Shown here: positions 14,830 to 61,884 of the stretch, in pieces
Numbering within the stretch: position 1 is the stretch's first letter
How the letters are laid out: each line of letters opens with the position of its first letter
Source of the DNA: Eledone cirrhosa
Lineage: Eukaryota
Direction of reading: 5' to 3'
Assembly (NCBI GenBank): GCA_964016885.1
Contig: OZ024751.1
Location: 37,262,001 to 37,326,000 of the forward strand
DNA: 64,000 bases
Notes under the pieces: generated by a model
The model's database searches: none
Told to the model about the DNA's origin: nothing
Seen by the model: the letters and a program-made list of their open reading frames with translations, nothing else
Program-made: the position numbers and the translations under genes

Positions 14830-15204
14830 CGATATTAAATAAATGGAAACTATATTTATAAAACCATATTTATTTCATTATACATATTTCAGGGATACCA
14901 AATTAAAATATGGTATGTCTTCATCAGACAAAATACAATATATAAACAGTTTTATATATAATTATAATAAGGGTACGTCAAAATTATTTATAAAACTTTA
15001 TATATTGTATTTTGTCTGATGAAGGCATACCATATTTTAATTTGGTATCCCTGAAATATGTATAATGAAATAAATATGGTTTTATAAATATAGTTTCCAT
15101 TTATTTAATATCGTATATCTACTCCAAAAACTTGTCGAGTGCTTTATGTCAGTTATAAAATATTTACTTGTTGTATCCCAACAATTTTAAATAGAACTTT
15201 TGCA
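14830..15204 (+). mobile_element. Fold-back PLE-like insertion, family B copy 1 (inverted unit + direct unit + tail)
   Basis: 14830-14960 is the reverse complement of about 14985-15114. A tail of about 90 bp ends aatagaacttttgca. (TA)n on both sides. Confidence 0.85.
15002..15077 (+). ncRNA. Type I hammerhead ribozyme (family B); mirror core on minus strand at 14881-14927
   Basis: CTGATGA (15016) aggcatacca-loop-tggtatccct GAAA (15053) tat GTA. Stem II 9/10 paired; stem I imperfect. Confidence 0.75.
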
Positions 15205-15442
15205 TATATATATATAAATATATATATATATATATAAATATATATATATAAATATATATATATAAATATATATATATAAATATATATATATAAATATATA
15301 TATATATAAATATATAAATATAAATATATAAATATATATATATATAAATATAAATATATATATATATATATAAATATATATATATAAATATATATATACA
15401 AATATATATATATAAATATATATATAAATATATATATATATA

Positions 15443-15497
15443 TTGTTATACGTTATACTTTGGGAGGGTCATGTTGCTAAACAAATGCAGAAACGAA
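15443..15497 (+). mobile_element. 55-bp minimal family E insertion
   Basis: Inverted repeat end gttatactttgggagggtcatgttgc is joined to tail end taaacaaatgcagaaacgaa; (TA)n on both sides. Confidence 0.75.
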
Positions 15498-18234
15498 ATA
15501 TATATGTATATATATATATATATATGATATGATATGTTAAGTGTGTGTTTCTTTCAAAATTTTTCAATTGTAAGTAAATGATATCCTCGAATCTCAAAAC
15601 TGAAATGTACATGAAATATATAAAATGCAAACTTTACGTATATATACGCGCACACACACACACACACACACACACCCACACACACTCACATATATATATA
15701 TATACATATATATACATACACATATATATGCATACTTATACACAGACTCGCACACTTTATATATATACATATACATATACACACACGAATCTGTATATAT
15801 ATATATATATATATATACATCTTCCAAATGGTAGCTGATTCGATTAAACGTGACAATTCTGATCGAAGCAAAGTAGTGTGTTTTGTGTTGATATTTTCTT
15901 ATATACACAATTTTACAAAAAATCTGCATATTTAACTGACAGTTAATTGAATATGTCATCAGAAATGTCGAAATGTTGCATTTTTATAAATCAAAACGAA
16001 AGTGTAAAATAAAAACTAATACAAAAAGATAATATAGAGAAAATAATTTTTCAATATTAGAAGTGTTGTGTTGCTATAAACATAACTTCAGCAGGAATCC
16101 CGACGATAAAATATTACTCGGGTTTGTAGGAATAATTTCAATCTCTTCACGCATATCAGCGTTTAACTTAATGGTTTTTCGTCTGAATTATTCAGTGTGA
16201 ATTATATATATATATATATATAATAGAAAAAGAAAAATCAGTGATGCATCTTCGTTTTCTATTATATCACACTCTGCTCTCTAAGAGCATAGAGTGCTCA
16301 ACAGACATACTGCCTATGGAAGCATCTTAGCTACCATCACACACACACACAGACACACACATATATATATATAGTTATATTTCTATATGTATCTCTCTCT
16401 CTAATATATATATATATATTGGAAAAACTAAGACGCTGTCATTTATAGGAATAACTATAATTCAATTAGAAGAAGAGAATGGGATTCCTTGAAGGAGTTA
16501 CAGATAGGAAAATAAGTAAAAATAATGTGAATTATCTAAGACTATCAAAGTTATTTATATTTTCTAAATATTTCCCATTGTTTTGTGAATTGTATTTAAA
16601 AATATATTAATTATATAATCCCTATAGTTTCAGGAAAGAGAGCACGCATTTGTGTGAGAACTGTCATGGCGTTCGAAACTGAATATAATATATTTTTATA
16701 TCCTATATTTCTCTATGTATTATATATGTTATATAGCAAACATTTCTATATAATGTATTATATACTGTAGATATATATACATTATATAATATTTATATAT
16801 ATATATATGTGTATGTATGTATGTATGATAAAGGCAACACGCAAAATGTAAAATAGTTTCTCATAATAAATCCACAAGAAGTGCGTTAGATTCTATAAAG
16901 AAATAATAGAAAATGTATAGAATATTGAAGCGCACCGGGTTTGTAACTAGATACACGATATAAAAACAATTTTTACGCTAAAAAATGTCTCCTTTCCGTC
17001 TCTTTACACATATTGTTAGCTCTTGGACATGATGTTATTCCACAGTTATTAAAGAAAATGCCAATCCTGTGTTATTTATTACTCAGCAGACTGTCTGAAA
17101 GAGAAATGCAATTGAACTGAAACGAGCCGTGAATAGCTGTTCATACAGTGTTGACATTTCCAAGAAGAAATATTATCCGCCTGTAACACATTCGCTCTCA
17201 CATTGTCTAAACATTAAATTTAGCAAACACGTTTAGTCTCACAGTCAGGCATATTGTATCGATATAACGTGTGATTCAAGTGTATCGATCTCTCTATTCA
17301 AATATATTTTATGACTAACATGCTTGAATTAATAGCGTTCTTCAACAGTAAAGTGTCCTTTAAAAAATACACATTCAGCACGAGAAAATGATGGAATATT
17401 ATGAGGGAAATGTTAATGAGATACCGAAACACCCAATAAAAATAGAAGGTAAAAAGGTTTGATATTTTACATAACTGAAACGACATCGCTATAAATATAC
17501 AGACATTGCATGTAAGCCAGTTAGTTACGGGGCTACGTTTAAATACAGTGCATTGCCATAATTATATGCAACATTGAAACAAACCAGTCACAGGATATGC
17601 CTGATTTATTTGTTTTAAAATCAAATAAGTAAATCTATCTATCTATTTATCTACCTGTCTAACTACCTACCAACCTATCTATCTATCTAACATTACGATC
17701 ATGAGCTGAACACACTAATCACAAAACAACACGTCATCACACTTACATTATATAATTCCTAATATGTTCCTTTTCCAAAAATTAGAGAAAAAAAAAGATT
17801 AAAGTTTTAAATTATGTACATTTTAGCAAGTCTGTTAAATATTATTACTCATTTATTTAGAACAGAATAAGAGAAAAAAGCTATTTTCAGAAACGACATT
17901 TGCTAATTTAAAGTGGAAATTAAGTTAGACATACTCAAACAAAACTAAAAATAAAATTTCGTGAGATATACAATTATTAATTATGAAAAAATATATAATT
18001 AGAATAATTGAGTTTTGAAATAGAAAAATGTGATATAACACCTATAAAATGGATAAATTAGGCTTTTAATTAGCCAAATGATTGTTATTGCATATATTGA
18101 TGTGTATACTTAGAGGCAAATGGAGAGTGAGGCTTGAGGAAAACTTTCCATTTTTCACAAATGAAATAGATTGCAGCCTGATGATTTTACACACACACAG
18201 ACACTGTATATAATATATATATATATATATATAT

Positions 18235-18698
18235 GCAAAAGTTTTATTTAAAATTGTTGGGTTACAACGAGTAAATATTTTATAACTGATATAAAAGCAC
18301 TCAACAGTTTTGGAGTAGGTTTACGATATTAAACAAATGGAAACTATATTTATAAAACCATATTTATTTCGTTATATATATTTCTGGGATATCATATTAA
18401 AAATATGGTATGCCTTCCTCAGACAAAATACAATATATAAGCTGTTTTATAAATAATTTTGACATACCTTATAATAATGCAACTTCCATTTAAAAAGTTG
18501 ATTTGGTAGACTACCAAATCAACTTTTTAAATGGAAGTTGCATTATTATAAGGTATGTCAAAATTATTTATAAAACAGCTTATATATTGTATTTTGTCTG
18601 AGGAAGGCATACCATATTTTTAATATGATATCCCAGAAATATATATAACGAAATAAATATGGTTTTATAAATATAGTTTCCATTTGTTTAATATCGTA
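18235..18698 (-). mobile_element. Fold-back PLE-like insertion, family B copy 2, containing a perfect 377-bp palindrome
   Basis: Arms 18322-18509 and 18511-18698 are exact reverse complements by eye. Tail 18235-18321 matches the reverse complement of 15115-15204. Confidence 0.9.
18584..18660 (+). ncRNA. Type I hammerhead ribozyme (family B); mirror core on minus strand at 18375-18422
   Basis: CTGAGGA (18598) aggcatacca...tgatatccca GAAA (18636) tat ATA. Stem II has more mismatches than copy 1. Confidence 0.65.
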
Positions 18699-59875: not shown

Positions 59876-61259
59876 CCTTTTCGCAGGCACACCTGAGATA
59901 TATCACCTAGCATAAGATGTAGAGTTTGCAAGCTGATATCCTACATTCTTTACATTTGTATTGTCTTTTCCTCACCCACTTTCTGTCTCGTTTTTATTGA
60001 TGCAATAATATTCACTATTATCAATTTCATTGCGTGCATTCATTGTATTTCAAGTGCAAATCTCTGTTCCTTATTAATATATAGAACAATTTATTACATT
60101 TTTATTTATGTCTTATCTATGTATTTCAACATCATCTCTCACATTGTCAAAAGAAAGCCTGAGGTAAGGCTAGATCTGACGTGTAGTATACGTGATGAAT
60201 TTCCTCTCAGCTTCCTAGACTTAATATGCATGATATTTGTTTCCTTCTCAGCATCTATTCCAATAGGTGGTCCTAACTAGCAAAAGTCGAAATATAAACT
60301 GACGTTAGCAGAAACCGCATGAGAGATAGAGAAACTGCTATCACTGCTATAGTTCATTGCATTCATTACAATAGCTTTGAGCTTAGAGCTTTATTCTAGA
60401 TTACATATAGTCAAAGCTAACAGCGTTCTGTTATATTACGAAGCAGTACCTTCATTAATACGAATATGAACAGACTGAAGGTTATAACCTTAAATCATAA
60501 CTGATGGAAAACGGAACTTGAAGTGCAGTGTTGAAGACAGTAAGACAAATACTAGCGGCGTCCATCTAGAGTAAATATAATGTAATGCAATTATTTCTGG
60601 AATGCAATTTCTAATATTTATGACCAACATTTTATTTTATGTAATAAAGAAAGCTATATTATAAGTTGTAGCCTCATACAATGGAAAGATCTTGTGTCTC
60701 AATTTCAAAACTTACTTCTTACACTTTATATAAAATATATTAACATTTTCGCGAAATTCCACAGCGCCAAGGAAACTCATTGCTCCTCCATTACGATCAG
60801 TTTTCATCTGTATGTGAGAAACGTAAATTTTATTGCATTGTTTTATAGCAAATGTTGGTTTCCCCAACTACTTTTGATATACATAAAATATTTCAAGTGC
60901 ATTCCTTCTGCCATGATAGAGTTCGTTTGATATATTGAGTATTCTTTGTCTAAGGATATGAATCGAGAAAGTCATCAGAACAACTGATTACATACCTCGG
61001 CTATTTAGTACATCTCTCTATGTTCTGAGTTCAAATCTAGTCGACGTTAATATTCGGGTATCATAAACAATCTTTGTTATATATTTACTCATCACTCAGT
61101 TCTACAGTCATTGTATTAAAATACAATGGAGAGTAAAGCGGTTAGAAGAGAAATGACAACTGTTAGAAAATACATTCAAATGTCTACGTGCGTGAATCTA
61201 TCGAAGTATGTATCTCATATATATATATATATATATATATATATATATATATATATATA

Positions 61260-61303
61260 TATTTGCTTGTTGTATCCCGACAATTTAAATAGATCTTTTA
61301 CAT
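61260..61303 (+). mobile_element. Diverged tail-only fragment of family B within (TA)n
   Basis: atttgcttgttgtatcccgacaatttaaatagatcttttaca aligns to 15161-15204. Confidence 0.7.
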
Positions 61304-61340
61304 ATATATATAAATGTCTAATATATATATATATATATAT

Positions 61341-61884
61341 TTCGTTTCTGAATTTGTTTAGCAAGATTCTTTATCTGAAAACGTGTGTTGAAACTGATAT
61401 TGTTATACTTCATGTTGCCAATAAGAAACACACGCACCAGTTGCTTTCACTTCAATTTATTATAATAAATTTATAAATTTAGGAATTTATAAATTTCCGG
61501 TTGGTTGGTTGGTTCCACAACCATATGGTTGTTTATATATTGTCAAAGTTCTTTCGTCACACATTATAAACACACAAAGAATATAAACACACACAGACAC
61601 CCGGATGTAACACATGCGCAAACTAAGCACACAACACACACACAAAAACAAGATGGCGTAGGAAAGAACAAAGGAGAGGCACAAAAAACAAAGAAAAGAA
61701 CCTCTAGTTACTGAAGAGGTCACAGAATGTGTGACGAAAGAACTTTGACAATATATAAACAATCATCTGGTTGTGGAACCAACCAACCAACCGGAAATTT
61801 ATAAATTTATTATAATAAATTGAAGTGAAAGCAACTGGTGCGTGTGTTTCTTATTGGCAACATGACCCTCCCAAAGTATAACAA
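61341..61884 (-). mobile_element. Fold-back PLE-like insertion, family E (most complete copy)
   Basis: Tail 61341-61399. Arm 61400-61566 is inverted relative to about 61725-61884. (TA)n on both sides. Confidence 0.88.
61707..61749 (+). ncRNA. Minimal type I hammerhead ribozyme (family E)
   Basis: gtta CTGAAGA g gtcaca-gaatg-tgtgac GAAA g aa CTT tgac. Confidence 0.78.

Follow-up and report, generated by a model that had tools for sequence, protein, structure and literature searches.

Two-armed repeats at TA microsatellites of Eledone cirrhosa have the structure of truncated Penelope-like insertions

Asymmetric two-armed repeats in an AT-rich window

We analysed a 64,000-nucleotide stretch of the Eledone cirrhosa genome (GenBank assembly GCA_964016885.1, contig OZ024751.1, positions 37,262,001 to 37,326,000 of the forward strand), hereafter called the window and numbered from its first letter, in which short inverted repeats lie between TA microsatellites and have the structure of truncated insertions of Penelope-like elements (PLEs). 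The window is AT-rich, with a GC content of 0.14–0.39 per 2 kb and abundant TA and CA microsatellites, and the long open reading frames (ORFs) outside simple repeats amount to only a few fragments. Comparison of the window with itself revealed palindromes at 14822–15121, 18322–18698, 44079–44784, 45237–45676 and 61397–61887. A preliminary description of this DNA had named seven copies of four repeat families and proposed that each couples a tail-less inverted unit with a direct unit that ends in a tail. All seven are present, namely B1 (14830–15203), B2 (18235–18696), C (45103–45673), D (43925–44782), E1 (61341–61883), E2 (45697–45960) and E3 (15444–15497), a density of seven two-part copies per 64 kb.

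The asymmetric design proved to be real in all seven: an inverted, 5'-truncated copy lies head to head with a direct copy, their orientation being set by the hammerhead motif described below, and a tail is found on one side. When all arms are written in the tail-facing direction, each family has a single base at which its inverted arm terminates, followed by (TA)n, and the direct unit runs past this tail-less end before it meets (TA)n in its turn, by 85–87 bp in B, 134 bp in C, 154 bp in D and 56 bp in E, close to the 60–150 bp that had been claimed. In E2 and E3 the direct arm is absent and only the tail end is found. The tail-less end is identical in both B and all three E inverted arms. Tails occur in the window in four copies for B, two for C and three for E; their 3' ends are fixed and their 5' ends ragged. 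All four B tails terminate within two bases of one point, both C tails at an identical base, as do the two E tails reported by BLAST, with E2 ending on the same 12 letters; AT-alternating letters follow in each family. Tails are thus not locus-specific flanks, since those of B, C and E recur in the window and that of D joins its arm in diverged copies. Fixed outer ends with a variable inner junction, which had already been noted for B and E, hold in B, D and E; the copies thus have the fixed 3' ends and variable 5' truncation of PLEs. The proximity of 28 of 32 ends to TA runs (3% at random) is circular, as the ends were catalogued partly by TA, and is not used here.

B1 consists of a tail-less inverted arm on the minus strand (14830–14965), whose 3' end abuts the (TA)n run at 14749–14829, and a direct unit on the plus strand (14966–15203; arm 14966–15113, tail to 15203) followed by (TA/TAAA)n. 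In B2 the direct unit lies on the minus strand (18235–18509; tail 18235–18321, hammerhead core 18422) and the inverted arm on the plus strand (18510–18696; core 18598), with a single base between arms that are identical at 185/185 positions. A solo 5'-truncated B tail at 35525–35603 (plus strand) stops at the same terminal base and is followed by AT-rich repeats, and a solo B tail end at 61263–61301 (plus strand) is flanked by (TA)n runs. The direct unit of C (45103–45453, minus strand; tail 45103–45236, core 45442) is joined through a centre of about 14 bp, which includes a short snap-back copy, to an inverted arm with its core at 45471 (centre and arm together 45454–45673, plus strand). A solo C tail end lies between (TA)n runs at 12714–12766 (plus strand) and matches the C tail at 51/51 positions. 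One 23-bp TA run (45674–45696) is common to C and E2, and the array that follows B1 (15204–15443) is bordered by E3 on its other side, so that elements nest in each other's TA runs.

Family E is the most varied. The direct unit of E1 (61341–61563, minus strand; tail 61341–61396) has its 5' end inside the hammerhead, and the inverted arm (61564–61883, plus strand; core 61711) reaches about 160 bp further 5'. The E1 direct arm (61397–61480) is without 9 bp immediately before the inner site that are present in all three inverted E arms, and the E1 inverted arm is without an 8-bp block; these gaps are either later deletions or marks of two different template repeats. In E2 the inverted arm (45697–45948; core 45891, minus strand) meets the terminal 12 bp of the E tail, and in E3 an inverted arm of about 30 bp is joined to the last 21–25 bp of that tail, with (TA)n on both sides. 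An old, diverged E-like palindrome, E0 (11988–12273; core 12129), is without terminal (TA)n.

We assigned two further elements, which the preliminary description had not named, to a family F. F1 (12897–14018) is a palindrome with an 83-bp spacer and two tail-less arms that are 99.4% identical, with hammerhead-like cores at 13154 (minus strand) and 13762 (plus strand) and a weak stem I; its last 25–28 bp are common to F1 and family E. F2 (55091–55238, minus strand) is a lone tail-less arm between microsatellites. A tail-like, strand-consistent segment at 14364–14470 follows the right arm of F1 beyond a 345-bp TA/TAAA array and has a solo copy at 34290–34349. It may be the F tail, separated by expansion of the array, although the link is unproven. 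Each of the two copies lies between TA-rich runs.

The direct unit of D (43925–44399, minus strand; tail 43925–44078, arm 44079–44399, core 44167) meets an inverted arm (44398–44782, plus strand) that reaches about 78 bp further 5' and abuts (TA)n. For this family four of six sequencing runs (X1, X4, X5, X6) were aligned to 43925–44478; X1 possibly represents the sample that was assembled, and X4–X6 are three other samples of one other study. On the D unit X1 gave 308 contigs, of which 14, 81, 125 and 88 are at 99% or more, 95–99%, 90–95% and less than 90% identity, and X4, X5 and X6 gave 488, 529 and 668 reads, nearly all less than 90% alike. Among the eight listed of 314 contig pieces, two span the boundary of tail and arm, with over 31 letters to either side of it; they carry 20 and 23 other letters. 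TA-rich loose ends before 44077 occur in 12 reads of X5 and seven of X6, with letters at 44103 and 44105 that are found in neither D arm of the window, from which we infer another locus sharing the D tail-less end. Eleven reads of X4 carry a diverged D tail end with AT letters before it. The D junction of the window, at about 44398–44399, was placed by the loose ends of two and nine contigs (at 44398 and 44462), and strand-switch joints in other D copies connect 44048 with 44135 and 44118 with 44179 (one contig each); hence D has at least three junctions. Read depth (5,571–8,955 in the tail, 2,574–3,776 in the near arm and 200–945 further 5') falls as predicted from 5' truncation, but is not copy number and was set aside as evidence. 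Words taken from D and E had no exact match in the metagenome contigs scanned (0 and 0).

These data bear on the concern that the assembly is at fault and that fold-back chimeras of long reads, over ordinary solo repeats, account for the palindromes. The 100% identity of the B2 arms and 99.4% of the F1 arms would suit such an origin, and read alignment covered D only. Against it stand the D and E0 arms, at 91.4 and 80% identity, the family-specific points at which arms stop, and the short-read contigs with strand-switch joints in other D copies, albeit one contig each. We consider an artefact highly improbable.

Predicted hammerheads and likeness to Penelope-like elements

A type-I hammerhead core in the arms was suggested by eye, by comparison with the consensus of this ribozyme. 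A strict first scan detected hammerheads in the two arms of B1 alone. A third descriptor, which asks for at least four pairs in stems I and II and a minimal stem III and was tuned after inspection of the motifs, gave 11 matches in the window, compared with 2.25 on average over 20 shuffles. Nine of these lie on the tail-facing (sense) strand of the arms, which makes up 4,674 of 128,000 bases (3.7%); none is antisense and two are outside the arms. Nine of 16 arms and all four families are matched, and as copies of one family are not independent the relevant count is that of four families. Shuffles of any unit yielded a match in at most 5 of 400 cases, and in 0 of 400 for B1, where the plus-strand motif at 15008–15072 (core 15016) has a stem I of 8–9 bp, a stem II of 9 bp and a near-palindromic stem III. 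All four families B–E carry a predicted minimal hammerhead facing the tail, which the preliminary description had overlooked.

Minimal hammerheads are known from PLE repeats, and the traits listed for them include an additional base behind A9, G10.1-C11.1, a palindromic stem III, a U3-A8 variant and occurrence as pairs on opposite strands 100–700 bp apart (PMC4209133). We found the same traits here, that is, the extra base after A9 with G10.1-C11.1 in E and F, the palindromic stem III in B and C, the U3-A8 core in D, and opposite-strand pairs 100–700 bp apart. Two pairs of stem II differ on both sides when E is compared with F. The C motif differs from the known minimal hammerheads in its stem II (45478–45591), which spans 114 nt with about 17 stacked pairs, compared with 7–8 bp in print for PLE motifs; both arms have kept its 7-bp stem I and its palindromic stem III whole. 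As a predicted motif on the sense strand, the hammerhead would correspond to that of the PLE pseudo-long terminal repeat (pLTR).

The asymmetric design is not new, being the pLTR-plus-tail structure described for PLEs. An inverted 5'-truncated copy is reported often to adjoin the 5' end, with a 30–40 bp tail that is often at one end only and most likely stems from nuclease-mediated resolution; the origin of the tandem and inverted structures and the microsatellite bias are named in the same article as open questions (PMC8557442). The same anatomy is given in PMC3846280, where junction palindromes are interpreted as signs that an antisense template primed itself, and inverted pLTRs with short 3' extensions serve as marks for PLE curation in PMC8969392. 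De novo PLE insertions with a median of 128 bp are reported at microsatellites (PMC9977147), and recently active PLE families have been counted in Octopus vulgaris (PMC13282606).

The canonical endonuclease-positive PLEs (Penelope/Poseidon, Neptune, Nematis, Hydra), as described in PMC8557442 and PMC3846280, show the same 5' truncation, adjoining inverted copy and one-sided tail, as well as a hammerhead in the repeat and AT-rich or microsatellite targets. Long copies, in which the partial head-to-tail tandem of PLEs (pLTR-ORF-pLTR) would show, are absent from the window. Naiad PLEs, which prefer (TA)n and are reported in cephalopods among other invertebrates (PMC8557442), share the (TA)n targets, the inverted copies and the tail; yet they are described as being without canonical hammerheads, whereas the window families have hammerhead motifs. 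An N-terminal endonuclease is a further mark of the Naiad clade. Metazoan PLE hammerheads (PMC4209133) and animal non-LTR retrozymes, which a preprint ties to pLTRs (10.64898/2026.07.22.740005), have the same minimal type-I architecture and U3-A8 variant, and the dual opposite-strand motifs and non-autonomous pLTR-derived sequence are also alike. Retrozymes differ in forming head-to-tail tandem arrays: the window copies are head-to-head pairs or solo ends, and no head-to-tail repeat of any unit was found in the window self-comparison.

We conclude that the feature had been seen correctly and guessed largely correctly, but that it is of a known type, truncated PLE-type insertions. Families B to E, and F with them, very probably consist of short 5'-truncated insertions of at least four PLE families or of non-autonomous derivatives, an assignment that rests on structure and predicted ribozymes, not on a gene.

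Several results weigh against this assignment. By inspection, no reverse transcriptase (RT) or GIY-YIG gene was found among the 108 window ORFs of at least 90 aa, the copies being too short to hold such an ORF, and a Pfam search of four frames returned one weak match only (E 0.031), to a family of unknown function. The window copies also differ from canonical PLEs in having no ORF and in their tails of 56–154 nt, outside the published range of 30–40. A loose second hammerhead scan gave 13 matches against 6.9 +/- 2.6 in shuffles, barely above chance, and the third descriptor, set after inspection, misses seven of 16 arms, namely the inverted arms of B1, D and E0, the truncated E1 direct arm, F2 and both F1 arms with their weak stem I. 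The covariation between E and F is reached by 38 of 500 shuffles (4 distinct rows), and folding of the hammerhead regions does not surpass that of shuffles (z -0.9 to -2.0). Rfam returned no hammerhead at D or E1 and none among the 150 listed of 374 window matches, nearly all of which are microRNA-like hairpin noise. In the old copy E0 the arms are only 80% alike and TA flanks are absent, and F1 with two tail-less arms and F2 with a lone one do not plainly show the design.

Long inverted arms, TA flanks and the absence of coding capacity would also fit TA-targeting MITEs (miniature transposable elements with inverted repeats) or fold-back DNA transposons (e.g., MuTAnT of Medicago), with the tail as captured or flanking DNA, and the ends of F1 are indeed symmetric. 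Solo copies of the tails, however, recur with a constant 3' and a ragged 5' end, junctions differ between copies, and hammerheads lie on one strand of the unit. Such an origin is largely refuted and scarcely credible, and the earlier judgement that these are retroposed and not cut-and-paste elements is borne out by asymmetric ends, solo tails and differing junctions in place of symmetric ends and unit-length copies of constant interior. Palindromes of this kind are easily misclassified as MITEs.

Junctions, arm lengths and the origin of the inverted unit

In family B the arms are 98.5 and 100% identical within an insertion and 91.8–93.8% between insertions, and in F 99.4% within and 92% between; in E identity is only 98.6% within and 94.8–97.4% between, a small margin. 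The arms of B1, B2 and F1 share private variants, which implies that both units came from one event or were later homogenised. In four of the seven named copies (D, E1, E2 and E3) the inverted arm contains sequence absent from the direct unit. Folding back of the direct complementary DNA (cDNA) is therefore insufficient in these four, unless the direct unit was trimmed later, and this extra sequence favours independent priming of the inverted arm.

The published accounts take the other route: the inverted arm would arise by self-priming, one cDNA (or an antisense template) folding back at a short palindrome (PMC3846280), and nuclease-mediated resolution would leave the one-sided tail (PMC8557442). 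The nearly identical arms within one insertion agree with this, as do the perfect palindrome of B2 with its one central base and the junction of C, with about 14 inserted bases including the snap-back copy and both arms starting at the edge of hammerhead stem I. In E2 and E3, by contrast, the direct unit is tail only and leaves no template to fold on, and the D and E1 inverted arms extend some 78 and 160 bp beyond their direct units. Folding back alone also leaves the tail-less end unfixed, whereas two start sites fix it (PMC11167929). For PLE-derived copies as a whole we regard self-priming as rather unlikely; B2 and C fit it at least as well as independent priming, and the start of both C arms at the stem I edge suits either folding back or run-off at an RNA end.

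As the main route we favour, with a probability of about 0.65, two-site priming by a PLE protein in which the inverted arm is primed independently. That both target strands prime reverse transcription at two defined RNA sites, as the preliminary description supposed, has been shown in vitro for a PLE: on AT-rich DNA the purified protein cuts both strands and extends them from two internal RNA start sites, which enclose the tail; what follows the first priming is left unvalidated in that report (PMC11167929). This element, PAc (Poseidon, Anolis carolinensis), resembles the window families in the two-strand cutting and extension at AT-rich DNA, in the two fixed sites that bound the tail and in the hammerhead upstream of them. 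It differs in that its sites are 30–40 nt apart and strands are not assigned to sites, no strand difference in start site being reported, and the inverted repeat is left unexplained in the account given there. No stable stem-loop stands out in the window tails, none of the four having structure above that of shuffles (z -0.6 to +0.6).

Applied to the window, the arm would be a pLTR with a minimal hammerhead and the tail the RNA stretch between two fixed RT start sites. A PLE protein encoded elsewhere, combining a GIY-YIG nuclease with a telomerase-like RT, would bind pLTR RNA and nick both strands in or beside (TA)n; the targeting is observed here and two-strand cutting in vitro for another PLE. 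One 3' end would prime at the outer site and give the tailed direct unit, and the other at the inner site, 56–154 nt upstream, to give the tail-less inverted unit. The ends are fixed in the window and two sites are known in vitro, and the pairing of strands with sites, which the geometry suggests, is in itself reasonably probable. Both cDNAs would stop at variable points, in keeping with the variable junctions, and would presumably be joined head to head by end joining, with zero to four shared letters or a snap-back insert. Single-ended events would leave solo tails or lone arms.

The likeness to L1 twin priming that had been drawn stands in part. Twin priming, which Ostertag and Kazazian are said to have described in 2001, reportedly yields a head-to-head inversion with both target strands as primers and an internal join. 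The head-to-head form agrees with this, and E2 and E3, with non-overlapping units, are the L1-like form. In contrast, here the inner site is fixed per family, there is no poly(A), and the same RNA stretch is often copied twice. The microhomology that had been expected at the junctions did not generally appear: four letters are shared in E3, about three in B1 and two in the D junction of the window, none in E2 and none in the other two D joints, so that with B2 and C only three of eight judged junctions have two to four shared letters (E1, E0 and F1 were left out of the count because the parent sequence is not known).

Three observations tell against the proposed route. The direct unit shares with (TA)n at the inner site 5 letters in B1, 2 in B2, 3 in C, 2 in D and 4 in E1; in none of these five copies does the overlap exceed chance, as judged by random positions in the same units (P 0.09, 0.49, 0.25, 0.34 and 0.16, respectively). 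The common start of both B2 arms and the snap-back insert of C are awkward for two independent truncations. Finally, F1 has two tail-less arms.

Among ten elements examined for target duplications, nine have only chance-length words at their flanks and E1 alone has a candidate, a 20-bp direct repeat at 61302–61321 and 61886–61905 (plus strand). It consists of (AT)5 and 9–10 unique letters, and a (TA)10 run lies between the left repeat and the tail end. PLEs have target-site duplications of differing length, which microsatellites often conceal. Should the E1 repeat be one, the tail primer would have had an end other than (TA)n, and insertion would have added the run, either through reiterative copying or out of read-through RNA. 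The repeat, present at one locus of ten, is explained equally well by tandem duplication at an earlier time. The site adjoining E1 (61901–62102) is also the second copy of an old 200-bp repeat that is found at 338–541 (70% identity).

The 20-bp direct repeat bears on whether the two units could be separate single-ended insertions, placed head to head in one (TA)n run. Solo tails and a lone arm do exist, and one TA run can host two elements, as with C and E2 or B1 and E3. However, none of the seven named copies has (TA)n between its units, the arms of B1, B2 and F1 share private variants, and a single direct repeat frames the whole of E1. We therefore hold two separate insertions to be very unlikely.

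A stronger form of two-site priming would have a dimeric PLE protein assign the two strands to the two fixed RNA sites, the outer one yielding the direct and the inner one the inverted unit, accept a family-specific spacing of up to about 150 nt and add (TA)n at the tail end. This programmed twin priming is unlikely as a whole, and within it the fresh synthesis of (TA)n, which the (TA)10 inside the E1 duplication suggests, is doubtful. If true, it would mean that PLEs build TA microsatellites and do not only target them, and it would replace the published self-priming account. We found no account of PLE inverted repeats by twin priming in the titles and abstract openings of the literature searched, a search outside which most subscription papers fall.

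The design itself is textbook for PLEs and would not surprise a specialist. Tails 1.5–4 times the published length, inverted arms with sequence absent from the direct unit, and an apparent target duplication with an extra (TA)10 are possibly new. With several young families at such density, the open questions on PLE structure and microsatellite bias become countable: the length of the inverted arm relative to the direct unit separates independent priming from folding back, and target duplications of the E1 type bear on the addition of (TA)n at insertion.

Other repeats of the window

Further repeats share the setting of the two-armed copies. Another 3' end occurs twice, at 54916–54991 and 55259–55340 (92% identity), the two copies facing each other across TA runs with F2 nested between them, and yet another short end abuts (TA)n in two copies (95%) at 8657–8693 and 20535–20571. 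A 131-aa frame at 34534–34929 (minus strand), which gave no Pfam match, appears to resemble the C-terminal end of an RTE-type long interspersed nuclear element (LINE) protein. The region at 49028–49772 is a degenerate GAT/ATG trinucleotide tract with open frames of 98–182 aa. A repeat of about 190 bp, similar to short interspersed nuclear elements (SINEs), is present in four copies with 84–90% identity, at 3649–3848, 10746–10934, 32923–33124 and 38233–38416.

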